Of a stretch of 37,775 nucleotides of DNA, positions 1 through 37,775 are shown one piece after another. Origin of the DNA: Escherichia phage vB_EcoP_K. Each line of letters begins with the position of its first letter. Position 1 is the stretch's first letter. The stretch is from sequence record NC_047809.1. One strand, written 5' to 3'. Below the pieces are notes generated by a model that saw nothing but the letters and a program-made list of their open reading frames with translations, had not been told where the DNA came from and did not search any database. Position numbers and translations under genes: made by a program.

Positions 1-217
1 TAAGCGTAACACATCTACTGGGAAGGCTGAGGTTACTAGTGGAGCACAGCACACTCAGGCTCTGAACCGTGCACAGCGTAAAGCTGTATACGTCAAGAAT
101 GCTGCCCCGGCAGGTGCTGCTGCCGCTGCTAGCTTGTCTGCTGAAGATTTGGTTGCTGCTGTTCGTGCAGTGATGGCTAATGACATTAAGCCGACTGCAA
201 TGAAACCTGCTGAGTAA
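1..217 (+). CDS. 3' end of an ORF (72 codons, codons phased from nt 2; stop 215-217); probable C-terminal segment of the major capsid gene whose 5' part lies at 36788-37775
   Basis: Open frame ...GKAEVTSGAQ...AAPAGAAAAASLSAEDLVAAVRAVMANDIKPTAMKPAE*; sits immediately upstream of the tail tubular A gene as the capsid gene does in T7-like genomes; summed length 329+72 codons is about the size of an SP6-type capsid. Confidence 0.5.
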   Translation, partial: KRNTSTGKAEVTSGAQHTQALNRAQRKAVYVKNAAPAGAAAAASLSAEDLVAAVRAVMANDIKPTAMKPAE

Positions 218-225
218 TACCTATG

Positions 226-258
226 CCCTATCTACCTTGCGTAGGTAGGGTTCTTTTT
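226..258 (+). terminator. Rho-independent terminator after the capsid gene (T7 T-phi equivalent)
   Basis: 9-bp stem CCCTATCTA / TAGGTAGGG (one G-U), 7-nt loop CCTTGCG, followed by TTCTTTTT; immediately after stop at 215-217. Confidence 0.7.
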
Positions 259-271
259 GTTAGGAGGGTTC

Positions 272-1009
272 ATGCCTGTAATTAGACAAACCAGTAAAGT
301 AGGTCATATGATGGAAGATGTGGCCTTCCAGATTATTGATAGTAAGCTGGAAGCGGTAAACTTGTGTATGCGAGCTATTGGTCGTGAGGGTGTGGATTCT
401 CTCGACTCAGGTGACTTGGACGCAGAAGATGCAAGCAAGATGATCGACATCGTATCCCAGCGATTCCAGTACAACAAAGGAGGTGGCTGGTGGTTCAATC
501 GTGAACCAAACTGGCAGATTGCACCTGATACCAATGGTGAAGTCAATCTACCTAACAACTGCCTAGCAGTATTGCAGTGTTATGCTTTGGGTGAGAAGAA
601 AGTACCCATGACTATGCGAGCAGGTAAGCTCTACTCTACATGGAGTCATACCTTTGATATGCGTAAGCATGTGAATGCTAATGGTATGATTCGTCTTACC
701 TTACTTACCTTACTTCCATATGAGCATCTACCTACTAGTGTAATGCAGGCTATTGCCTATCAAGCTGCTGTAGAGTTTATTGTGTCTAAGGATGCAGATC
801 AGACTAAGCTAGCCACTGCACAGCAGATTGCCACTCAGCTTCTAATGGATGTGCAATCAGAACAAATGTCACAAAAGCGATTGAATATGCTTGTGCATAA
901 TCCTACGCAGCGTCAGTTCGGTATTATGGCAGGTGGTTCTCAGAATGCACCTGCTTACTCTCATTCACCATATGACAGTTGGGCACTTCGTCCGTGGGAG
1001 GATCGTTAA
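272..1009 (+). CDS. Tail tubular protein A (T7 gp11-like)
   Basis: AGGAGGG upstream of ATG 272; product has ...IGREGVDSLDSGD...GGGWWFN... resembling the N-terminal region of T7 gp11; position between capsid and gp12 homologue. Start uncertain (272 or 308). Confidence 0.65.
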   Translation: MPVIRQTSKVGHMMEDVAFQIIDSKLEAVNLCMRAIGREGVDSLDSGDLDAEDASKMIDIVSQRFQYNKGGGWWFNREPNWQIAPDTNGEVNLPNNCLAVLQCYALGEKKVPMTMRAGKLYSTWSHTFDMRKHVNANGMIRLTLLTLLPYEHLPTSVMQAIAYQAAVEFIVSKDADQTKLATAQQIATQLLMDVQSEQMSQKRLNMLVHNPTQRQFGIMAGGSQNAPAYSHSPYDSWALRPWEDR

Positions 1010-3408
1010 TGGAAGTACAAGGTTCATTAGGGAGGCAAATCCAAGGGATTAGCCAGCAACCACCAGCGGTACGTCTTGATGGCCAATGTACGACTATGGT
1101 GAACATGGTCCCTGATGTAGTGAATGGGACTCAATCCCGCATGGGTACAACTCACATTGCTAAGCTCTTGGATGAAGGTACAGATAATATGGCAACGCAC
1201 CATTATCGCAGGGGTGAGGGGGATGAAGAGTATTTCTTCACCTTAAAGAAGGGGCAAGTGCCAGAGATATTTGATAAGCATGGACGCAAGTGCAATGTCA
1301 CCTCTCAAGATGCACCTATGACCTACCTTTCTGAAGTTGTTAACCCTAGGGAAGATGTGCAATTCATGACTATAGCTGATGTTACTTTTATGCTTAACCG
1401 TAGGAAAGTGGTTAAAGTTAGTAATAGGAAGTCACCTAAAGTTGGAGATAAAGCCATTGTGTTTTGTGCATATGGTCAATACGGTACATCTTATTCTATC
1501 ATAATTAATGGAACTACAGCTGCTAGTTTTAAAACACCAGATGGGGGAAGTGCAGAACATGTTGAACAAATACGAACGGAACGTATCACTTCTGAATTGT
1601 ACTCCAAGTTGCAGCAATGGAGTGGTGTGAATGACTATGAAATACAAAGAGATGGTACGAGCATATTTATAAAGAGACGCGATGGTAAAAGTTTCACAGT
1701 AACAACTACCGATGGTGCAAAAGGTAAGGACTTAGTGGCTATCAAGAATAAAGTTAGCTCTACTGACCTACTCCCTTCTCGTGCGCCTGCTGGTTATAAA
1801 GTACAAGTGTGGCCTGCTGGCAGCAAACCTGAGTCTCGTTACTGGCTGCAAGCTGAGCCTAAAGAGGGAAACCTTGTGTCTTGGAAAGAAACAATAGCTG
1901 CTGATGTATTACTTGGGTTTGATAAAGGCACAATGCCTTACATTATTGAACGTACAGGTATCATCGACGGCATAGTTCAATTCAAGATAAGACAAGGTGA
2001 TTGGGAAGATCGTAAAGTAGGGGATGACTTGACTAACCCTATGCCCTCTTTTATTGATGAGGAAGTACCCCAGACAATAGGTGGAATGTTCATGGTGCAG
2101 AACCGCCTATGCTTTACAGCAGGTGAAGCGGTTATTGCTTCTCGTACATCATACTTCTTCGATTTCTTTCGTTATACGGTTATCTCTGCATTGGCAACTG
2201 ACCCATTTGATATTTTCTCAGATGCTAGTGAGGTCTACCAGCTAAAACATGCAGTGACCTTAGATGGCGCTACCGTGTTGTTCTCTGATAAGTCACAATT
2301 TATACTGCCAGGCGATAAGCCTTTAGAGAAGTCAAATGCATTGCTTAAGCCTGTTACAACATTTGAAGTGAACAATAAAGTGAAGCCAGTAGTAACGGGT
2401 GAATCAGTAATGTTTGCCACTAATGATGGTTCTTACTCTGGTGTACGAGAGTTCTATACAGACTCTTATAGTGACACTAAGAAGGCACAAGCAATCACAA
2501 GTCATGTGAATAAACTCATCGAAGGTAACATTACCAACATGGCAGCAAGCACCCATGTTAACAGGTTACTTGTCACTACCGATAAGTATCGTAACATAAT
2601 CTACTGCTACGATTGGTTATGGCAAGGAACAGACCGTGTACAATCAGCATGGCATGTATGGAAGTGGCCTATAGGTACAAAGGTGCGAGGTATGTTTTAT
2701 TCTGGTGAATTACTTTACCTGCTCCTTGAGCGAGGAGATGGCGTATATCTGGAGAAGATGGACATGGGTGATGCACTAACCTACGGTTTGAATGACCGCA
2801 TCAGAATGGATAGGCAAGCAGAGTTAGTCTTCAAGCATTTTAAAGCAGAAGATGAATGGGTGTCTGAACAGCTTCCTTGGACTCCTACTAACCCAGAGCT
2901 TTTGGATTGCATCTTAATAGACGGATGGGATTCATATATTGGTGGTTCTTTCCTATTCAAATACAACCCCGGTGATAACACCTTGTCTACAACCTTTGAT
3001 ATGCATGATAGCCACGTAAAAGCGAAGGTTATTGTTGGTCAGATTTACCCTCAAGAGTTTGAACCAACACCTGTAGTTATCAGAGATAGGCAAGACCGTG
3101 TATCCTATATTGATGTACCTGTTGTGGGGTTGGTTCACCTTAATCTTGATATGTATCCTGATTTCTCCGTGGAGGTTAAGAATGTGAAGAGTGGTAAAGT
3201 ACGCAGGGTGCTAGCGTCAAACCGCATAGGTGGCGCTCTCAACAATACAGTAGGTTATGTTGAACCGAGAGAGGGTGTCTTCAGATTCCCACTGAGAGCT
3301 AAGAGCACTGATGTTGTTTATCGTATTATTGTAGAGTCACCTCACACATTCCAGCTTCGTGATATTGAGTGGGAAGGAAGCTACAATCCAACCAAAAGGA
3401 GGGTCTAA
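1009..3408 (+). CDS. Tail tubular protein B (T7 gp12-like), 799 aa
   Basis: Start ATG overlaps gp11 stop (TAATG) with GGGAGGA upstream; N-terminus MEVQGSLGRQIQGISQQP resembles T7 gp12 N-terminus (..GGISQQP..); size and synteny. Confidence 0.85.
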   Translation: MEVQGSLGRQIQGISQQPPAVRLDGQCTTMVNMVPDVVNGTQSRMGTTHIAKLLDEGTDNMATHHYRRGEGDEEYFFTLKKGQVPEIFDKHGRKCNVTSQDAPMTYLSEVVNPREDVQFMTIADVTFMLNRRKVVKVSNRKSPKVGDKAIVFCAYGQYGTSYSIIINGTTAASFKTPDGGSAEHVEQIRTERITSELYSKLQQWSGVNDYEIQRDGTSIFIKRRDGKSFTVTTTDGAKGKDLVAIKNKVSSTDLLPSRAPAGYKVQVWPAGSKPESRYWLQAEPKEGNLVSWKETIAADVLLGFDKGTMPYIIERTGIIDGIVQFKIRQGDWEDRKVGDDLTNPMPSFIDEEVPQTIGGMFMVQNRLCFTAGEAVIASRTSYFFDFFRYTVISALATDPFDIFSDASEVYQLKHAVTLDGATVLFSDKSQFILPGDKPLEKSNALLKPVTTFEVNNKVKPVVTGESVMFATNDGSYSGVREFYTDSYSDTKKAQAITSHVNKLIEGNITNMAASTHVNRLLVTTDKYRNIIYCYDWLWQGTDRVQSAWHVWKWPIGTKVRGMFYSGELLYLLLERGDGVYLEKMDMGDALTYGLNDRIRMDRQAELVFKHFKAEDEWVSEQLPWTPTNPELLDCILIDGWDSYIGGSFLFKYNPGDNTLSTTFDMHDSHVKAKVIVGQIYPQEFEPTPVVIRDRQDRVSYIDVPVVGLVHLNLDMYPDFSVEVKNVKSGKVRRVLASNRIGGALNNTVGYVEPREGVFRFPLRAKSTDVVYRIIVESPHTFQLRDIEWEGSYNPTKRRV

Positions 3409-4133
3409 TGGCTATAGGTTCAGCCGTTATGTCTGGTATGTCTTCTCTAGGTAGTATGTTTGCAGGTAGCGGTGCAGCAGCCGCTGCTGGAGGTACTGCC
3501 GCAGCAGGTGGTGGAGGTTTACTAGGTTCCGTGGGAGGTTTCCTAAGTGGTTCCACTGGTGGCTTCTCCAATGCAGGCTTGCTTAGTGCAGGTATGCAAG
3601 GACTAGGGCTTATAGGTAATCTTTTTGGTGGAAGGGATGAAGCCAAAGCTATGAAGAAGGCTCAGGAGGAGCAATGGCGGCAGCAGTTAATTGCTACGCA
3701 GGAGGCATACAAAACAGTAGCAGATGCAGAACGCTCTGCTGCTAAACAGTACCATGCAGACGCAATAAGCAATCAGGCTTCACTACTACAGCAGCGAGCA
3801 CAGGTTGCATTACTTGCAGGTGCAACTGGTACTGGTGGTAACTCTGTGTCTTCTATGCTGAATGATTTGGCAGCAGAGGGAGGGAGAAACCAGAGTACAA
3901 TTATTGATAACTATGAGAATCAGAAGATTAATTTCACCAACCAGCTTAAGTCCATTCAACGCGGTGGACAGATGCAGATGCGTGAGTTTAAGAAGCCTTC
4001 TGCCGTAAGTACCTTGGTTCAAGGTATTCCAAGTCTTGCATCTGCCTATGTAATGGGTAGCAAGTCTGGTATGGCTTTAGGTAAAGCTTTAACTGATTCT
4101 CGTACATATTCATCTGGAACAAGAGGTATTTAA
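3408..4133 (+). CDS. Internal virion protein, glycine-rich N-terminus (gp13/gp14-position)
   Basis: ATG overlapping preceding stop, AAGGAGGG upstream; Gly/Ala-rich hydrophobic N-terminal third; synteny between gp12 and the large internal virion proteins. Confidence 0.5.
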   Translation: MAIGSAVMSGMSSLGSMFAGSGAAAAAGGTAAAGGGGLLGSVGGFLSGSTGGFSNAGLLSAGMQGLGLIGNLFGGRDEAKAMKKAQEEQWRQQLIATQEAYKTVADAERSAAKQYHADAISNQASLLQQRAQVALLAGATGTGGNSVSSMLNDLAAEGGRNQSTIIDNYENQKINFTNQLKSIQRGGQMQMREFKKPSAVSTLVQGIPSLASAYVMGSKSGMALGKALTDSRTYSSGTRGI

Positions 4134-7081
4134 TGGCAATTGAGCGACAAGCAGTACAAGGTCTGCCACAAGTGCAGGCCACTTCTCCTAATGTCATGAC
4201 CTTTGCACCTCAGCAAGTTGGAGGTGTGGAGGCTGGCGTAGCTTCTACCTCCGGTAGTCGATTTATCGAAGACCTTATTCGAGCAGCCAGCAGTGTAGCT
4301 GATGTTACCACTGGTATCCTTAATCAGAAGATTGAGGAAGATAAGGTTGTTCAAATGGAACGGGCATATAATGGATTAATGCCCTCTGAGGATGCAACTC
4401 GTGGTGGCGCTCGTGCTAACATGCTTGTCAAAGCTCAACTGCTGGCTAATGATGAAGCAGCACGAATGAAAGACATGGCTACTCGTTTCCAAGGAACGGA
4501 TGACGAGTGGACACAACTCATGGTCGATTCTCGTAATGAGATGCAGAATAAGCTGTTCCAGCAATACCCAGAGTTGCAAGGTGACAAAGATACTATGCGT
4601 ATGGTCACTAATGTCTTCCAAGAACAGCAGCCTCAGATTTGGGCTACACGAACCAAGCATAAACTTGACCGTGAACAAGCAGACCGTGAGGATACCTTTG
4701 ACGGGCGAGTGGCTTCTACTTGGGATTCTAATATTGACCCTGAGGCCTCTGGCTATGCTTTACAGGAACGAATCCGCGAAGGTCTGACTCAAGGATTACT
4801 ACCTGAACAGATGTACAAGAAGTTAGTCCAGCGGGCAATTTCACTTGCACAAGGTGGGGATGTTAGCATGGCTGAAGCCCTGAAGTATGTGAAGGACGAT
4901 AAGGGCGTTTCTGTTTATGCTAAGAATCCACAGCTTATCACAGCCATCACTAGTGGTAATGCAGTTTGGGCTAGGAATAATGTAGCTGATGTAACTCGTA
5001 TGTCTTTCGAAGTTAAAGAATCATACCTTGCAGGCGATTTAACTGATGAAGAATTATTGGAACGAGCACAGCACATTAATAATCTGACAGGTAACTCTGT
5101 CTTCTCTAATCCAGAGCTAGAGGCACTGATGCGCCAACGGGCTAAGCAGAATGCAGAGCTAGGTGCAATGCAGGATATGCGACGTGAGCTTTACTCCGAC
5201 CGCCTGACTGGCTTCCAAGGTAAGACTGATAAAGAGAAGAAGGCTTACATTGATGTTATCAAACAGGATAGCCAACTTTATGCAGACCAGCAAATCAAAC
5301 AACGTGGCTTGGACCCTTACAGTCAAGAGGCTGAAGCTATTCGTGGTGCAGTGGAAGTGCAGCGCCTGCAATTCATGAACTCCAAAGGCTTAGTGGATGA
5401 TACCTTTGAGTCTCGTATCAAAGCCATGGAATCTATGCTATCTCCTGAGCACTTTGCCAAGGGCGAACCACAGGAGTTGATGACTATTCGTCAGTTGTGG
5501 GAACAGTTGCCAGAAGAGAGCCGAGGTGTCTTTGGTGACACGGTGAATGGCTACATGGATAACTACAACACTGCACTACAAATGGGAGAGACACCTTTGC
5601 AGGCTGCAAGGTTTGCGCGTGAAGCACAGCAGAAATTCTCTCGTACTGAGAAGGAAAACAAGAAGTTCAACTCAGCTATTGGAGATGCACTGGATGAGGT
5701 ATCTGGTGCTGGCTGGTTTGATGGTAAAACCGAAGTGTCAGACTTAGGTAAAGCTATTGCGGAAGAAGAGTTACGAGCTAAGGCCAATATGCTGTGGTCT
5801 AGCGGTATGCGTAACATGGATTCTATCAAGAAGGCTTTAATTACTTGGGGCAATAAACGCTACACTCAATCAGAGGATGCAAAGACTTCAGGTGGCTATT
5901 TCATTAAAGGTGATTACACTTCTGCATCTGATATGCTTATGTCAGTTGGGAAAGGTGTAAACCCTACCGATGTCCCTCTGGCGCTTGGTAGGTATGTAGA
6001 AACACAGATGCCAGAATTGAAGAAGGAGCTTCAAGAGTGGGAAACTAAGGATGATGTGTACATTGATTACAATGAACAGAAAGGAACTTTTGTGATTCGT
6101 GCTGGTGCAGCAGGTCGCCCTCTTTCTGGAGTAATCCCTGTAACTTCTTTGGATACCACTTCACTACTGGATTCTGCCTATCAGAAGAAAGTAGAAGAAC
6201 GAGACAAAGGCGAGTATGTTCATCCCTATCGTACAGGTATCGGTGCACAAGAACCAATGCCAGCTAAGCCAACTGCCAAAGATATTGGTAAATTTGGACT
6301 AGCTAACTTCCTCATGTCTTCTGCTTTTGCTTCTGGTGAGAATCTGCCTTCTAACTTCGAGATTAACTATCGAGGTAATATGCAACAATTCTATGACAAG
6401 CTAGCTATGGATGAGAATAAAGATAAAGTTGGCTTTAATAAGGCAACTGGAACCTTTACTCCATATAAAGACGCTCACGGTGAGTCTATCGGTTACGGTC
6501 ATTTCTTAACGGAAGAAGAGAAGCGAAACGGGTATATTAAGATTGGCGATGAACTAGTTCCCTATCGAGGGTCTATGTCTCAGCTTACAGAGAGTAAGGC
6601 TCGCGCTCTTATGGAGCAAGATGCTAAGAAGCATGTGCCTCCTACTCGTGACTGGAAGATTCCGTTTGACCAGATGCATCCTGCACAGCAACGTGGCTTG
6701 ATGGATTTAACCTACAATTTAGGTAAAGGTGGAATCCAGAACTCACCGCGTGCTCTTGCTGCATTCAAAGCTGGTAAACTTACGGAAGGCTTTATCGAAA
6801 TGCTGGGTACTGCATCTAGTGAAGGTAAACGTGTTTCTGGCTTACTGAAGCGACGTGCTGAGGCTTACAATATGGCATCTGCTGGTGGTGTGCCTAAGAT
6901 TACCGAAGTGGAGACTCGTGAAGATGGCTCCATGTGGGTTAGATTTGGTGGCCCTATGCCAGCAGGTTCTGTCTCGGCATGGACTCATAAACTTATTGGC
7001 GCGGATGGTTGGTATCAGGTTTATGATGCTGCACCTACCAAGTTAGCTAAAGATTCTAAGGTAGGTAAAGTTAAATTGTAG
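4133..7081 (+). CDS. Internal virion (ejection) protein with C-terminal lysozyme-like muralytic domain, 982 aa
   Basis: Residues ~778-900 (nt ~6464-6830) carry YKDAHGESIGYGH...LMDLTYNLGKGG...ALAAFKAG resembling T4/P22-type lysozyme motifs (YKDTEGYYTIGIGH; ..IFNIGKSAFAGS..); size and position typical of podovirus core proteins. Confidence 0.7.
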   Translation: MAIERQAVQGLPQVQATSPNVMTFAPQQVGGVEAGVASTSGSRFIEDLIRAASSVADVTTGILNQKIEEDKVVQMERAYNGLMPSEDATRGGARANMLVKAQLLANDEAARMKDMATRFQGTDDEWTQLMVDSRNEMQNKLFQQYPELQGDKDTMRMVTNVFQEQQPQIWATRTKHKLDREQADREDTFDGRVASTWDSNIDPEASGYALQERIREGLTQGLLPEQMYKKLVQRAISLAQGGDVSMAEALKYVKDDKGVSVYAKNPQLITAITSGNAVWARNNVADVTRMSFEVKESYLAGDLTDEELLERAQHINNLTGNSVFSNPELEALMRQRAKQNAELGAMQDMRRELYSDRLTGFQGKTDKEKKAYIDVIKQDSQLYADQQIKQRGLDPYSQEAEAIRGAVEVQRLQFMNSKGLVDDTFESRIKAMESMLSPEHFAKGEPQELMTIRQLWEQLPEESRGVFGDTVNGYMDNYNTALQMGETPLQAARFAREAQQKFSRTEKENKKFNSAIGDALDEVSGAGWFDGKTEVSDLGKAIAEEELRAKANMLWSSGMRNMDSIKKALITWGNKRYTQSEDAKTSGGYFIKGDYTSASDMLMSVGKGVNPTDVPLALGRYVETQMPELKKELQEWETKDDVYIDYNEQKGTFVIRAGAAGRPLSGVIPVTSLDTTSLLDSAYQKKVEERDKGEYVHPYRTGIGAQEPMPAKPTAKDIGKFGLANFLMSSAFASGENLPSNFEINYRGNMQQFYDKLAMDENKDKVGFNKATGTFTPYKDAHGESIGYGHFLTEEEKRNGYIKIGDELVPYRGSMSQLTESKARALMEQDAKKHVPPTRDWKIPFDQMHPAQQRGLMDLTYNLGKGGIQNSPRALAAFKAGKLTEGFIEMLGTASSEGKRVSGLLKRRAEAYNMASAGGVPKITEVETREDGSMWVRFGGPMPAGSVSAWTHKLIGADGWYQVYDAAPTKLAKDSKVGKVKL

Positions 7082-7095
7082 TACCTAACTCAAGG

Positions 7096-7117
7096 CTTGT
7101 CTCACATGTGAGACAGG
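7096..7117 (+). promoter_or_regulatory. Conserved palindromic stem-loop, copy 1 (CTTGTCTCACATGTGAGACAGG), possible terminator or RNA processing site
   Basis: Near-perfect inverted repeat 15 nt after stop at 7081, followed by TCTTTAT; same motif recurs at 21711, 22888 and 27950. Confidence 0.45.
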
Positions 7118-7145
7118 TCTTTATGATAGGCACTATGGAGGAACT

Positions 7146-10100
7146 ATGGAACAAGATATTAAGACTAATTGGGCTGGATATGTCCAGTCTACTCCTGAGC
7201 CGTTTTCTATTGAGGCGGCTCCGGTATCGGCTCCTACGATACGCCAGCGTAATGAGTTACAAGAGCAAGTTCTTGAAGCCAAAGCTGATGCGGACATCTT
7301 AGGTGCTGTAGGTGCTGCCTTCCAGAATGAATGGTTGGCATTTGGAGGTAAGCGATGGTATGACCGTGCCACTGCTGATTTCACACCTCAACCTGACTTT
7401 GAAATCCAACCGGAGCAACGTGAAGCTCTTCGCTTCAAATACGGCACGGATATGATGCAGACAATCATTGAGGGTGTTCGTTCTGAGGATGAATTGAACT
7501 TCCGTATTCAGAATGCTGATGAAGACCTTGAGCGTAATAAACGTATTGCGCAGGCTGGCTGGGTTGGCTCTGTGGCAACGATTGGTGCTGCTGTGCTCGA
7601 CCCTGTTGGCTGGGTTGCCTCTATTCCAACCGGTGGTGCAGCTAAAGTTGGGCTTGTAGGCCGTGCTGTGCGTGGTGCTATCGCCGCTGGCGTGAGTAAT
7701 GCCGCTATTGAATCCGTATTGGTCCAAGGTGACATGACTCGTGATTTAGATGACATTATGGTGGCACTAGGCTCGGGCATGGCGATGGGTGGCGTTATCG
7801 GCGCTGTAGCGCGTGGTAGGGCCACTAAGCTCAGTGAGCAAGGGGATGACAGAGCGGCAAGCATTGTGCGCAGTGCAGACGCAGGGGACCGCTATGTGCG
7901 TGCTGTTGCTGATGACAGTATCGGTGCGATGCGTGTTAAGGGTGAAGAGGTACTCACTGAGGGTGCATTCGATATCTCTAGCAAAGGTGAAGATTTGCTG
8001 AAAACCCTACAGCGGGAAGGTAATGCAATTGATATGACACCTCGCCGCTGGGCCGGAACTATGTCTGCCCTTGGTACTGTCGTGCACTCCTCTCAGGATG
8101 CAAGTGTACGTGGTCTTGGTGCTCGCCTGTTTGAGTCCCCGCAAGGCTTAGGTGCACAGAAGGCATCGGCTAGTCTCATGCAGAATACTAACTTGAATCG
8201 TCTGAAATCTGCTGATATGAACCGTTTCAATGATGGGTTCGATTTATGGCTCAAAGAGAATAATATCAATCCGGTTGCAGGTCATACTAACTCTCACTAT
8301 GTGCAGCAATATAATGAGAAGGTATGGGAAGCTGTACGCATCGGTATGGATGAGTCTACGCCTAAGTCTATCCGTATGGCAGCAGAGGGGCAGCAAGCTA
8401 TGTATCGAGAAGCCTTAGCTTTACGGAAGAGCTCTGGTGAAGCTGGGTTTGAAAAGGTTAAAGCAGATGATAAGTACATGCCTGATATTTTTGACAGTAT
8501 GAAGGCTCGTCGTCAATTTAGTATGCACGATAAGGAGGACATCATTGAGCTATTCTCTCGTGCATACCAGAATGGTTCTCGTAAGGTTCCAAAGGAAGTG
8601 GCTGATGAGATTGCACGTGCACAAGTAAACCGTGTTGTGGATGCCACTCTGACAGGACGTATGAGTTTCGAAAAGGCTATGTCTGGTCAGACTAAAGCAG
8701 AGTATGAAGCAATAATGCGCAAGGCAGGCTTCAGTGATGAAGAAATTGAAAAGATGGTAGAAGCTCTTGATAATAAAGAAACCAGAGATAATATCTCTAA
8801 CCGAGCTAAGATGAGTTTAGGCTTAGATGTTACTCAAGAGTACAATGGCATTCGTATGCGTGACTTTATGAATACTAACGTGGAAGAGTTGACAGATAAC
8901 TACATGAAGGAAGCGGCAGGTGGTGCTGCCTTGGCTCGTCAAGGTTTCTCTACCTATCAGGCTGCACTTAATGCAATTGACCTTGTAGAGCGAAATGCAC
9001 GAAATGCAGCTAAAGATACAAAAGCACACGCACAATTTGAAGCGGAGTCTGCTAAGATTCGTCAATCAGAGCCTGATTACAAGAAGGCACAAGAGAAGAT
9101 TGAAGAGTTAAAGAAGCGACTTAAATTGAAAGAGAAAGATGAAGCAGCGGGTCTGGCTATTGATGAAGAAATCCGTCAGATGCGAGAAGGGCTTCGCTTA
9201 ATTATGGGTAAATCTATCGATGCAGACCCACAGGCTTTATCTACTAAAATGCTGCGTCGTGGTCGTGATATTACAGGTGTACTTCGCTTAGGTCAGATGG
9301 GCTTCGCACAGCTAGGTGAACTTGCTAACTTCATGGGTGAGTTTGGTATTGCTGCAACCACTATAGCTTTAGGTAAGCAATTCCGCTTTACATCTAAGGC
9401 TTTGCGGAGCGGTGATGGCTTCTTCCGAGATAAGAACTTGGCAGAAGTAGAGAGGATGGTAGGTTACATTGGTGAGGATAACTGGCTAACAACCAAGGGT
9501 GCACGTCCAGATGAGTTTGGTGATGTAACCACAGTAAGAGGGATGATGGCTCACTTTGACCAATCCATGAACTCAATACGTCGTGCTCAAACCAACCTAT
9601 CACTCTTCCGCATGGCACAGGGTTCTCTGGAGCGAATGACCAATAGGCAAATAGCTTTGTCTTTCATTGACCACCTTGAAGGCAAGAAGATTATTCCTCA
9701 GAAGAAACTGGAGGAACTTGGTCTTACTCAGGAGTTCATGACTAACCTACAGAAGCACTATGATGCTAACTCTAAAGGTTCTGGCTTGCTTGGCTTTGAT
9801 ACAATGCCTTATGCCATGGGTGAAACTTTAGCTAATGCTATTCGTCGTAAGTCAGGTCTAATTATCCAACGTAACTTCATTGGTGATGAAGGTATCTGGA
9901 TGAACAAAGCACTAGGTAAGACATTTGCACAGCTTAAGTCATTCTCTCTTGTATCTGGTGAGAAGCAATTTGGTCGAGGGATTCGCCACGATAAAATTGG
10001 TCTTGCTAAGAAGACAGCTTACGGGTTTGCTTTGGGTTCAATAGTGTATGCGGCAAAAGCCTATGTGAACTCTATTGGGCGAGAAGACCAAGATGAATAT

Positions 10101-11620: not shown

Positions 11621-11903
11621 ACATGCAGCTACGGAAGACGAGGTTGGCATTCTACATGGTGCTATTACCAAAATCTTTAATAAGAAAGCACAGGCAATAC
11701 TGGACACTATAGAAGAAGACCCAGATGCAGCACTGCATTTAGTCTCTGGTAAAGACATTGGAGCTATGTGTAAGTGGGTTCTTGATAATGGTATTACCGC
11801 TACACCCGCTGCACAGCAGGAGGAGTCCAAGCTATCTAAGCGCCTCAAGGCTATCCGAGAGGCATCAAGTGGCAAGATCATCCAATTCACTAAGGAGGAT
11901 TGA
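11604..11903 (+). CDS. Terminase small subunit (T7 gp18-like), 99 aa
   Basis: GGAGGAG RBS before ATG 11604; small acidic helical protein immediately upstream of and overlapping the large terminase gene. Confidence 0.6.
   Translation: MSVHNKHAATEDEVGILHGAITKIFNKKAQAILDTIEEDPDAALHLVSGKDIGAMCKWVLDNGITATPAAQQEESKLSKRLKAIREASSGKIIQFTKED
11695..11717 (+). promoter_or_regulatory. SP6-class phage RNAP promoter (inside the terminase small subunit gene)
   Basis: CAATACTGGACACTATAGAAGAA; core identical to other copies; predicted +1 G at 11712. Confidence 0.6.
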
Positions 11904-13801
11904 TGGCTAAGGCAAGAGAATCACAAGCGGAGGCTCTTGCCAGATGGGAGATGCTACAGGAGTTACAGCAGACTTTTCCGTATACGGCGGAAGGTTTGCT
12001 TCTCTTTGCAGATACAGTTATCCATAACTTGATTGCAGGCAACCCTCATCTGATTCGTATGCAGGCCGATATTTTAAAGTTTCTATTCTATGGACATAAA
12101 TATCGCCTCATCGAAGCGCCCCGTGGTATCGCTAAAACTACACTATCAGCAATCTATACTGTTTTCCGTATCATCCATGAACCCCATAAGCGTATCATGG
12201 TAGTATCCCAAAACGCCAAGCGAGCAGAGGAAATCGCAGGTTGGGTAGTTAAAATCTTCCGTGGCCTAGACTTTCTTGAGTTTATGCTACCGGACATCTA
12301 CGCAGGGGACCGTGCCTCAGTTAAGGCATTTGAGATTCATTACACCCTACGTGGCAGTGACAAGTCGCCTTCTGTGTCTTGTTACTCAATCGAAGCAGGT
12401 ATGCAGGGTGCGCGTGCAGATATCATCCTAGCAGATGACGTTGAGTCAATGCAGAATGCTCGTACAGCGGCAGGACGTGCCTTGCTTGAGGAACTGACCA
12501 AGGAGTTTGAATCTATTAACCAGTTTGGTGATATTATCTACCTTGGTACTCCTCAGAACGTAAACTCTATCTACAATAACCTACCTACTCGTGGTTACTC
12601 TGTTCGTATCTGGACTGCACGTTATCCCTCAGTGGAGCAGGAGCAATGCTATGGTGACTCCCTTGCACCTATGATTGTGCAGGATATGAAGGACAACCCA
12701 GCACTTCGCTCAGGGTATGGCTTGGATGGCAATAGTGGTGCACCTTGTGCACCTGAAATGTATGATGATGATGTGCTGATCGAGAAGGAAATCTCGCAGG
12801 GTGCGGCTAAGTTCCAGCTTCAGTTTATGCTTAACACTCGCATGATGGATGCTGACCGCTATCCACTACGCCTGAACAACCTCATCTTCACTTCATTCGG
12901 TACAGAGGAAGTCCCTGTGGTGCCTACATGGAGCAACGACTCTATTAACATCATTGGCGATGCACCGAAGTATGGCAATAAGCCTACAGACTTTATGTAT
13001 CGCCCTGTGGCCCGACCTTATGAGTGGGGTGCTGTTACCCGAAAGATTATGTATATTGACCCCGCAGGTGGCGGTAAGAACGGGGATGAAACGGGTGTGG
13101 CTATCGTCTTCCTGCACGGCACATTCATTTATGTGTATCAGTGCTTTGGTGTTCCGGGAGGATACCGCGAATCGTCCCTGAATCGCATTGTGCAGGCCGC
13201 AAAGCAGGCAGGTGTTAAAGAGGTATTCATTGAAAAGAACTTTGGTCATGGCGCGTTTGAGGCCGTTATAAAGCCATACTTTGAACGAGAGTGGCCTGTG
13301 ACTCTGGAGGAAGATTACGCCACCGGACAGAAAGAGTTGCGTATCATTGAAACACTAGAGCCACTAATGGCGGCCCACAGGCTCATCTTCAACGCAGAGA
13401 TGGTCAAGTCTGATTTTGAGTCGGTACAGCACTATCCGCTTGAACTACGCATGTCATACAGCCTTTTCAATCAAATGTCGAACATCACGATTGAGAAGAA
13501 CAGCCTACGACACGATGACCGCTTAGACGCTCTGTATGGCGCTATACGGCAATTAACTTCTCAGATAGACTATGACGAGGTTACACGGATTAATCGCCTC
13601 AGAGCGCAGGAGATGCGCGATTACATCCATGCTATGAACACACCTCACCTCCGTAGGGCAATGCTCTATGGAGATTATGGCACTGAGCGAAGAGTAACCA
13701 ACACTTCCGTGGCTATGCAGCAAAGAGTATACGGTCAGAATTACAGGAGTAAATCGGCAAGCAGAAATACACTTTCTGCAAGGATTTCAAGGACTTATTA
13801 A
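11903..13801 (+). CDS. Terminase large subunit (T7 gp19-like), 632 aa
   Basis: Start overlaps upstream stop (TGATG); ATPase region ..RLIEAPRGIAKTT.. and ..IILADDVES..; C-terminal nuclease-like region; size and synteny. Confidence 0.9.
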   Translation: MAKARESQAEALARWEMLQELQQTFPYTAEGLLLFADTVIHNLIAGNPHLIRMQADILKFLFYGHKYRLIEAPRGIAKTTLSAIYTVFRIIHEPHKRIMVVSQNAKRAEEIAGWVVKIFRGLDFLEFMLPDIYAGDRASVKAFEIHYTLRGSDKSPSVSCYSIEAGMQGARADIILADDVESMQNARTAAGRALLEELTKEFESINQFGDIIYLGTPQNVNSIYNNLPTRGYSVRIWTARYPSVEQEQCYGDSLAPMIVQDMKDNPALRSGYGLDGNSGAPCAPEMYDDDVLIEKEISQGAAKFQLQFMLNTRMMDADRYPLRLNNLIFTSFGTEEVPVVPTWSNDSINIIGDAPKYGNKPTDFMYRPVARPYEWGAVTRKIMYIDPAGGGKNGDETGVAIVFLHGTFIYVYQCFGVPGGYRESSLNRIVQAAKQAGVKEVFIEKNFGHGAFEAVIKPYFEREWPVTLEEDYATGQKELRIIETLEPLMAAHRLIFNAEMVKSDFESVQHYPLELRMSYSLFNQMSNITIEKNSLRHDDRLDALYGAIRQLTSQIDYDEVTRINRLRAQEMRDYIHAMNTPHLRRAMLYGDYGTERRVTNTSVAMQQRVYGQNYRSKSASRNTLSARISRTY

Positions 13802-18769: not shown

Positions 18770-18829
18770 TCAAATGAGGTAACATGAAAGACCTACTGTT
18801 AGCCCTCTTATGCACAGCATGTATCTATG

Positions 18830-18887
18830 GCCCACACCCTCATGCCCTGTCAAACGCTCAGGAATGGCCCTAAAACGGCCTGTGTAA
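18830..18887. repeat. 58-bp direct repeat, copy 1
   Basis: GCCCACACCCTCATGCCCTGTCAAACGCTCAGGAATGGCCCTAAAACGGCCTGTGTAA; identical copy at 19266-19323. Confidence 0.9.
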
Positions 18888-19025
18888 CAATAGATACAGA
18901 GCTAGGATAGGCTAGATTGGCTAGGTTTAGGGTGTTCCTCCTACTGCATCTTATCACTATTACCTACTCTCAGCGGTCTACCGACCGCGACCTAATTGCA
19001 TCTTATAGCTTTAGCTATGCAATCA

Positions 19026-19160
19026 CTAAGGTCTGGCACTAAGACTAACTAAGGTACACTACTAAGTTGATACTAAGCTAAGCACTAAGGCTTTAACTAA
19101 GGCAACCCACTAAGGCTAACCTAAGCCATCCATCAAGGAATAACCTAAGGTACACGTGAG
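19026..19160. repeat. Array of about 11 degenerate heptamers (A/C)CTAAG(G), genome-terminus-like
   Basis: CACTAAGG, AACTAAGG, TACTAAG.. recur at short irregular spacing; analogous to the CCTAAAG-type repeats of T7 genome ends; four more copies at 19325-19420. Confidence 0.7.
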
Positions 19161-19183
19161 CGAGTGAACGGAGCGCAAGCGGA

Positions 19184-19239
19184 GTGAGGAGCAGTGAGTG
19201 AGGAGCAGTGAGTGAGGAGCAGTGAGTGAGGAGCAGTGA
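19184..19239. repeat. Tandem repeat, 4 x 14 bp (GTGAGGAGCAGTGA) plus partial copies
   Basis: Exact tandem copies visible in GGAGTGAGGAGCAGTGAGTGAGGAGCAGTGAGTGAGGAGCAGTGAGTGAGGAGCAGTGAGTGAAGCG. Confidence 0.9.
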
Positions 19240-19265
19240 GTGAAGCGTAGCGAAACGAACAGATA

Positions 19266-19323
19266 GCCCACACCCTCATGCCCTGTCAAACGCTCAGGAA
19301 TGGCCCTAAAACGGCCTGTGTAA
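19266..19323. repeat. 58-bp direct repeat, copy 2
   Basis: Identical to 18830-18887; copies are 436 bp apart and bracket the heptamer and tandem-repeat region. Confidence 0.9.
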
Positions 19324-19583
19324 GCCCTAAGCGGTTGCACTAAGGCAATCACCTTGTCCAATACTAAGGCGCGCCCTAGCGCTTCCTAGGTGTTCTCCTT
19401 GTGCAGCCACTAAGAGCAGACCTCGGCAAGCCCTAGGCCACCCGTCGAGCTTCCTGCGGCAGCAGGTTGAAGACGGACCAGCCCAGCCCAATTCCCAAGC
19501 CAACCGCAGCGCGTTTAAATAGTCACGGGCAAGAGTGCTACATAGTGCAACGTAAAGTATTAGGCTCAATATGGGTCACGTGT

Positions 19584-36716: not shown

Positions 36717-36739
36717 ATTTACTGGACACTATAGAAGGG
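36717..36739 (+). promoter_or_regulatory. SP6-class phage RNAP promoter (capsid promoter)
   Basis: ATTTACTGGACACTATAGAAGGG; +1 G at 36734; followed by 5' leader hairpin GGGAGAAATGTCTCCC (36737-36752) and strong RBS. Confidence 0.8.
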
Positions 36740-36787
36740 AGAAATGTCTCCCTAAATTATCAATTTGATTTATAAGGAGGTTTATTA

Positions 36788-37775
36788 ATGTCTACACCGA
36801 ATACTCTGACCAACGTTGCAGTCTCCGCTTCCGGTGAGGTAGACAGCCTGCTCATTGAGAAATTCAATGGTAAGGTAAATGAGCAGTACCTGAAAGGTGA
36901 GAACATCATGTCCTACTTCGATGTTCAGACTGTTACTGGTACTAACACGGTAAGCAACAAATACTTGGGTGAAACAGAGTTGCAGGTTCTGGCACCGGGT
37001 CAGTCTCCGGCTGCAACCTCTACTCAGGCCGATAAAAACCAGCTGGTAATTGATGCCACTGTTATTGCTCGTAACACCGTTGCACACCTGCATGATGTAC
37101 AGGGTGATATTGACAGCCTGAAACCTAAGCTGGCTACCAACCAAGCTAAGCAGCTTAAGAAGATGGAAGATGAAATGCTGATTCAGCAGATGCTGCTGGG
37201 TGGTATTGCTAACACTCAGGCTAAGCGTACTAACCCTCGTGTGAAAGGTCATGGCTTCTCTGTCAACGTGGAGGTCAATGAAAGCGAAGCACTGGTTAAC
37301 CCGCAGTATGTAATGGCGGCTGTAGAGTTTGCTCTGGAGCAGCAGCTTGAGCAGGAAGTAGACATCTCTGATGTAGCTATCCTGATGCCGTGGCGCTACT
37401 TCAACGTACTGCGTGATGCAGACCGTATCGTTGACAAGAGCTACACCATCAGCCAGTCCGGTGCAACCATTCATGGTTTTGTTCTGTCTTCTTACAACTG
37501 TCCTGTTATCCCGTCTAACCGCTTCCCTAAATTCTCTCAGGGTCAGAAACATCACCTGCTGTCCAATGAAGACAACGGTTATCGTTATGACCCGACCGCA
37601 GAGATGAATGGTGCTATCGCTGTACTGTTCACATCTGACGCTCTGCTTGTGGGTCGTTCTATTGATGTAACCGGTGATATCTTCTATGAGAAGAAAGAGA
37701 AGACCTACTACATTGATACTTTCATGTCTGAAGGTGCAATCCCTGATCGATGGGAAGCAGTGTCTGTTGTGACAA
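36788..37775 (+). CDS. Major capsid protein (T7 gp10-like), 5' portion; runs off the window end (329 codons)
   Basis: AAGGAGG RBS 7 nt upstream; high-expression codon usage; C-terminal part ..GAIPDRWEAVSVVT resembles the end of the T7 10A fold (..GLRPEAAGAVVFKV); not in the ORF track because no stop codon falls in the window. Confidence 0.85.
   Translation, partial: MSTPNTLTNVAVSASGEVDSLLIEKFNGKVNEQYLKGENIMSYFDVQTVTGTNTVSNKYLGETELQVLAPGQSPAATSTQADKNQLVIDATVIARNTVAHLHDVQGDIDSLKPKLATNQAKQLKKMEDEMLIQQMLLGGIANTQAKRTNPRVKGHGFSVNVEVNESEALVNPQYVMAAVEFALEQQLEQEVDISDVAILMPWRYFNVLRDADRIVDKSYTISQSGATIHGFVLSSYNCPVIPSNRFPKFSQGQKHHLLSNEDNGYRYDPTAEMNGAIAVLFTSDALLVGRSIDVTGDIFYEKKEKTYYIDTFMSEGAIPDRWEAVSVVT

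Follow-up and report, generated by a model that had tools for sequence, protein, structure and literature searches.

The stretch of DNA analysed here (the window, 37,775 nucleotides) represents a K1E-like Vectrevirus of the SP6 group (Molineuxvirinae). Its record is circularly permuted and is cut inside the major capsid gene, parts of which are found at both ends of the window together with the signals that flank them:

36788 to 37775, plus strand: 5' part of the major capsid gene, with codons 1-329 (the conserved HK97-type core) and the first base (A) of codon 330
1 to 217, plus strand: 3' part of the major capsid gene, with the third base (T) of codon 330, codons 331-401 (2-214) and the stop codon TAA (215-217)
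36717 to 36741, plus strand: SP6/K1E-type phage RNA polymerase promoter, ATTTACTGGACACTATAGAAGGGAG, upstream of the capsid gene
225 to 260, plus strand: intrinsic terminator hairpin with a T-run, formed by an 11-bp stem GCCCTATCTACC...GGTAGGGT and then TCTTTTTGTT, following the capsid gene

The capsid start codon, ATG at 36788, is preceded directly by an AAGGAGG ribosome-binding site. A promoter is annotated at the equivalent place in Proteus phage Pm5460, while the terminator occupies a position equivalent to that of T7 Tphi, and both Pm5460 and T7 are annotated with a terminator there. According to the layout of open reading frames and to the annotations, the gene context of the capsid (portal, scaffold, capsid, tail tubular A/B) is conserved with the relatives of this phage.

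The capsid reading frame that begins at 36788 is still open at 37775, as the first-pass annotation had described, and positions 1-217 hold the last 71 codons of the gene and its stop. When position 37775 is joined directly to position 1, the frames of the two parts are offset by one nucleotide. Across this join, frame 0 reads ISVTHLLGRLRLLVEHSTLRL and ends 21 codons beyond it, at the stop codon 63-65, while the -1 frame stays open for 72 codons. The latter is open from 37747 (a TGA occupies 37744-37746) to the TAA at 215-217, and its product is NKRNTSTGKAEVTSGAQHTQALNRAQRKAVYVKNAAPAGAAAAASLSAEDLVAAVRAVMANDIKPTAMKPAE, which includes ...NKRNTSTGKAEVTSGAQHTQALNRAQRKAVYVKN...KPAE. Both the short frame-0 tail and the extent of the open -1 frame had been noticed before and were reproduced. 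The -1 frame had also been regarded as a plausible C-terminal extension, and it is indeed real coding sequence, with 98.5% protein identity to the C-terminus of the phage B capsid and a match to PHROG 267.

The window starts with TAAGCGTAAC and ends with GTTGTGACAA, so that the direct join reads GACAATAAGCG. No terminal overlap between the window ends was found at any of the lengths tested (1-400 nt). A circular molecule of exactly 37,775 bases is thus an assumption that the sequence itself does not demonstrate. This assumption of the first-pass annotation did not survive the comparison with relatives, which have one more base at this place.

In the relatives examined, exactly one extra base, a C, is present between the last and the first bases of the window (...GTGACAA-C-TAAGCG...). 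The comparison covered phages B, C, D, mutPK1A2, ACG-C91 and K1E, as well as Salmonella, Klebsiella, Proteus and Erwinia phages and three environmental contigs. What is absent is the second position of codon 330 (ACT, Thr). Megablast coordinates indicate one skipped base between the two halves at 41612 in B, 22734 in C, 44004 in D, 24458 in mutPK1A2 and 24459 in ACG-C91. The sequence of phage C at the join is ...GTTGTGACAA-C-TAAGCGTAGC..., and the same arrangement (GACAA-C-TAAGCG) is found in mutPK1A2 and Sem2. When the joined window was aligned by MAFFT with eight annotated capsid genes, a single-column gap appeared exactly at 37775|1, with the C present in 8/8 of the genes (vB_EcoP_C, vB_EcoP_B, mutPK1A2, K1E, Salmonella Kenya-K30, Klebsiella K1-ULIP33, Proteus Pm5460 and Erwinia phiEa1H). 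Pattern scans which allowed 0-2 or 0-3 bases at the join retrieved only 1-base versions, two from IMG/VR and one from a metagenome collection. The three environmental contigs carry GACAACTAAGCG at the join within intact ORFs of 401-403 aa. With 0-3 bases allowed, ACG-C91 was the sole IMG/VR match, and the metagenomes gave none. The alternative that had been offered beside recoding, namely that one nucleotide is missing at the window junction, is therefore borne out by the single-base C of the relatives at 37775|1.

The Sem2 record (PV775413, vB_Eco_Sem2) deserves a separate remark, as its capsid gene (1495-2699) appears in the annotation as two separate CDSs. A recurrent frame break at the join was considered on this account and was rejected, since the break in Sem2 lies elsewhere, at codon 305, where an A-rich run, GAAGAAAGAGAAGA, has lost 1 nt. 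Within the stretch of Sem2 that was examined, the genes for scaffold and tail tubular B are likewise split. The presence of several split genes makes sequencing errors likely in that record, and these are unrelated to the join of the window.

The capsid gene of the relatives is a single uninterrupted reading frame. Each of their annotated capsid CDSs is one ORF, 364-403 aa long and free of internal stops, which was the very observation that the first-pass annotation had named as telling against its frameshift proposal. With one base allowed at the join, the restored capsid is colinear over residues 1-401 in one tblastn piece at 84-98.5% identity. Overall protein identity reaches 98.5% with phage B and 84-97% with other Escherichia, Salmonella, Klebsiella and Proteus phages. 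In a tblastn search, the restored protein of 401 aa matched 152 records at an identity of at least 60%. Among the matches listed at 65% identity or more (19 records within a 60-row spread sample), every one was a single in-frame piece that crossed residue 329/330 and reached at least residue 357. A solved capsid structure, PDB 7y3t, aligns continuously over residues 1-362 (E = 3.7e-177), reading ...AIPDRWEAVSVVTTARNATTG..., and PHROG 267 (major head protein) covers residues 1-400 (E = 6e-97). The 72-residue tail taken alone matches positions 330-395 of the PHROG 267 profile. In Pfam, no family was found for this capsid.

The restored protein resembles the capsid of K1E (gp31), SP6 and other Molineuxvirinae in its length of 401 aa, in the location of its gene between the scaffolding and tail tubular A genes, and in the shared arrangement of promoter and terminator; its core is identical to that of vB_EcoP_C. 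It differs in that the window as given lacks the middle base of codon 330.

The phages closest to the window are B, C, D and R, all from the Smith-Huggins collection. Positions 1-1200 are 99.3% identical to phage B and the remainder is colinear with B at 98.9-99.9%. Exact matches to the scaffold protein were found only in phages C and R, and none was found to the tail tubular A protein. At the nucleotide level, the 5' part of the capsid gene (36788-37775) matches its counterparts in vB_EcoP_C and vB_EcoP_R at 100% identity and that in B at 99.9%. The Smith-Huggins K1 phage collection was sequenced by Baig et al. 2017 (PMC5582158), whose pipeline "circularised" single SPAdes contigs by placing Ns between the ends and remapping the reads; the junction gaps are stated to have been filled by read mapping (PMC5582158). 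Phage K is listed there with 38,025 bp, 45% GC and terminal repeats of 250-289 bp (PMC5582158, Table 1). The length of the window equals 38,025 - 250, that is, the published size less one terminal repeat, and its GC content is 45.1%. Similarly, the published sizes of the sibling phages exceed their GenBank lengths by one terminal repeat (R 289, D 288, B 289 and C 289 bp). Together with the missing RNA polymerase region, these figures make it very probable that the window is the record deposited for vB_EcoP_K.

Each of these four sibling records also lacks bases where its own end and start meet (B 1 nt, R 2 nt, C 10 nt and D about 140 nt), as follows:

KY295891 (phage B), record ends: 1 nt missing in the portal gene; the B_55 annotation is truncated
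KY295899 (phage R), record ends: 2 nt missing in the tail tubular A gene; the R_60 annotation is truncated
KY295892 (phage C), record ends: 10 nt missing at the end/start join
KY295893 (phage D), record ends: about 140 nt missing, including the capsid start; the D_59 annotation is truncated

The sibling records share with the window the collection, the pipeline and the end-join defect; they differ only in where the cut lies and in how many bases were lost.

These observations make it highly probable that the frame break is a linearisation artefact, in which one C was lost where the ends of the record meet, and that the restored gene is an ordinary single capsid gene of 401 codons. The base is missing, the relatives have single ORFs and frameshift signals are absent from the gene; we infer that the base was lost in assembly or deposition rather than in the phage. 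The artefact is supported by the coincidence of the frame discrepancy with the exact record boundary, by the agreement of the relatives on the missing base, and by the gaps that other records of the same pipeline (B, R, C and D) have at their own end/start joins. Against it stands the gap filling by read mapping stated by the authors, which should have restored the C, yet the sibling deposits are still gapped.

In this scenario of an imperfectly closed record, the window would be the assembly of a K1E-like Vectrevirus, complete but cut open at an arbitrary point, with its start and end inside the major capsid gene. The contig ends would not have abutted perfectly, and the C of codon 330 would have been lost at the join. 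The restored gene would encode the conserved core of 329 residues and, continuing in the same frame, the C-terminal extension of 72 residues, with no ribosomal frameshift involved. By homology, the capsid would be expressed as a single 401-codon ORF preceded by the phage promoter and the ribosome-binding site and followed by the terminator.

As to the reason why the contig was cut at this position, a de Bruijn graph break at a strain-variable site was considered and rejected, since the two ends do not overlap by any k-mer and the first variant is reached as early as 9 nt into the record. The fall of the contig end on the boundary between core and extension, which aligns with the T7 shift codon, also speaks against the artefact, but it is treated as a coincidence, attributable only to chance.

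Among the competing explanations, the one closest to a linearisation artefact holds that the deposited vB_EcoP_K record is complete and that one terminal base was dropped when the window was cut from it. An identical picture would be expected in this case, with one base missing exactly at the boundary. The arithmetic speaks against it, since the window length is accounted for by subtracting one terminal repeat from the published size, and the lengths of B, C, D and R in GenBank follow from the same subtraction. As the sibling GenBank records have junction gaps of their own, the loss is most simply located in the record and not in the cutting of the window, and this explanation appears unlikely.

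More improbable still is a genuine 1-nt deletion in phage K, which would leave a truncated capsid composed of the 329-residue core and 21 out-of-frame residues, devoid of the extension. Such a frame-0 product of the directly joined sequence (350 residues) would end in ...VVTISVTHLL...LRL (...SVVTISVTHLLGRLRLLVEHSTLRL). This explanation draws some support from the fact that the record is odd in other respects, with its early region deleted and its left end inverted. Moreover, the extended capsid form of T7, 10B, is dispensable, so that a loss of the extension might be tolerated. On the other hand, the deletion would need to fall on precisely the nucleotide where the contig happens to end, for which the odds are about 1 in 37,775. 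The 71 codons downstream are intact, free of stops and 98.5% identical at the protein level to relatives, which gives no sign of decay, and the four sibling records have junction gaps of a like kind. If phage K truly lacked the C, its head would have to be built from the core-only capsid, with or without a little full-length protein made through an unconventional -1 shift at a place with no slippery site, and we consider this just as improbable. It would constitute a natural experiment, in which the constitutive capsid extension of an SP6-like phage proves dispensable in the manner of T7 10B, but the evidence is strongly against it.

The first-pass annotation had favoured a -1 programmed ribosomal frameshift like that of T7 10A/10B, which would yield a minor, longer capsid protein. 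The difference between the early frame-0 stop and the long open -1 frame agrees with this proposal, as does the alignment of the join with the T7 shift codon F342. The shift would have to occur within a zone of 94 nt, from 37747 to 65. In this zone, neither a slippery heptamer of the form X_XXY_YYZ nor a homopolymer of four or more bases was found, and no canonical slippery heptamer occurs anywhere in the capsid gene. Additionally, no stimulatory RNA structure was detected downstream, as the minimum free energy (-34.9 kcal/mol) is close to the mean of shuffled sequences (-34.2 kcal/mol; z = -0.19). The search for such signals near 37747-65 had been suggested earlier, and neither of the two was present. 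The T7 site, G GTT TTC, served as a positive control; it was located in the T7 record and reproduced the annotated 398-aa 10B. No publication on frameshifting in SP6/K1-5 capsids turned up in a literature search. The reading frame is broken at precisely the boundary of the record, and all relatives have the extension in frame, even those whose core is 100% identical. Given these relatives, a recoding signal would have needed to appear at the same time as the deletion, in a genome that has diverged by less than 1%. With single-ORF relatives and with both the slippery site and the stimulatory structure absent, programmed frameshifting can be dismissed as the least credible of the explanations.

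The likeness to T7 gene 10 (10A, 345 aa; 10B, 398 aa) nevertheless has a basis. In a MAFFT alignment with T7, residue 329 of the window stands opposite V341 of T7, and the split codon 330 stands opposite F342, the codon at which T7 shifts. Both systems have a roughly 55-70-residue C-terminal extension rich in Ala, Thr and Ser at the aligned position. They differ in that T7 has the slippery sequence G GTT TTC, with the 10A stop 3 codons later, whereas the window has no slippery site. The extension is reached by frameshifting in T7, in contrast to the relatives of the window in the Molineuxvirinae, where it lies in the zero frame and is thus carried by every capsid subunit. Between the extension of the window and that of T7 10B, BLASTP found no significant similarity, and the correspondence is one of position alone. 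The same boundary is visible in more distant phages. For instance, the capsid of Yersinia phage phiR8-01, a member of another subfamily, ends within two residues of it, and tblastn matches to distant Autographiviridae end at residues 320-330. The earlier analogy with 10A/10B is therefore retained in one part, since the 72-residue extension starts at the residue aligned with the T7 shift, and abandoned in the other, since Molineuxvirinae reach this extension with no frameshift. The alignment of the extension start with the shift codon means that the resemblance noticed earlier reflects a real domain boundary.

The extension consists of a hypervariable linker (residues 331-350), a conserved HTQxLNRAQRKAVYVKN motif and an Ala-rich stretch leading to a conserved C-terminal segment. 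Compared with phage C, the 329 core codons are identical at the nucleotide level, while the 72-codon extension contains six nucleotide differences, 6/6 of which are non-synonymous (codons 333, 338, 341, 343, 350 and 400). The capsids of vB_EcoP_C and of the window are thus separated by six amino-acid substitutions, every one of them in the C-terminal extension. In comparison with mutPK1A2, the capsid core shows 13 synonymous and 2 non-synonymous changes. This pattern of substitutions suggests that the linker of the extension is hypervariable, that it probably lies exposed at the surface and that it may be subject to diversifying selection.

Several other features of the window were observed outside the capsid region. 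Compared with K1E and phage B, the segment at 18836-19513 holds the non-coding left end (K1E 40-622, with most of the terminal repeat) in inverted orientation, and nothing is present of the early region (K1E 623-7212), whose genes gp1-gp8 include ocr and that of the phage RNA polymerase. Owing to the breakpoint at 19513, gp8.5 lacks its first 9 codons, and a search of IMG/VR for the breakpoint sequence gave no match. Phage K was described as devoid of the RNA polymerase, 1.1, ocr and homing-endonuclease genes (PMC5582158). The absence of the early region agrees with this published description of vB_EcoP_K, yet it looks like a misassembly or a defective genome. Six SP6/K1E-type promoters are present on the plus strand (13800, 15480, 21642, 26068, 27983 and 36717), with 0 expected by chance. 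Six phage-polymerase promoters with no gene for a phage RNA polymerase are hard to square with a self-sufficient phage, and this adds doubt about the completeness of the assembly.

Repeats are also found near the inverted segment. A 61-nt direct repeat, 98% identical, occupies 18827-18887 and 19263-19323 and corresponds to the inner end of the terminal repeat. At 19182-19243, the 14-nt unit GAGTGAGGAGCAGT is repeated in tandem 4.4 times, and overlapping BLAST segments indicate that its copy number appears different from that in phage B. The large terminase gene (11900-13801) is one uninterrupted ORF of 633 aa, as in phage B, unlike in K1E and phages C, D and R, where it is split by a homing endonuclease (40A / 40.5 / 40B).

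The case described here calls for caution, as circularly permuted phage records often close imperfectly, and a gene that spans their ends can mimic a recoding event. In these strains, amino-acid changes of the capsid accumulate in the extension only. SP6/K1E-like phages have their capsid extension fused in frame to the core, where T7 reaches its own by frameshifting.
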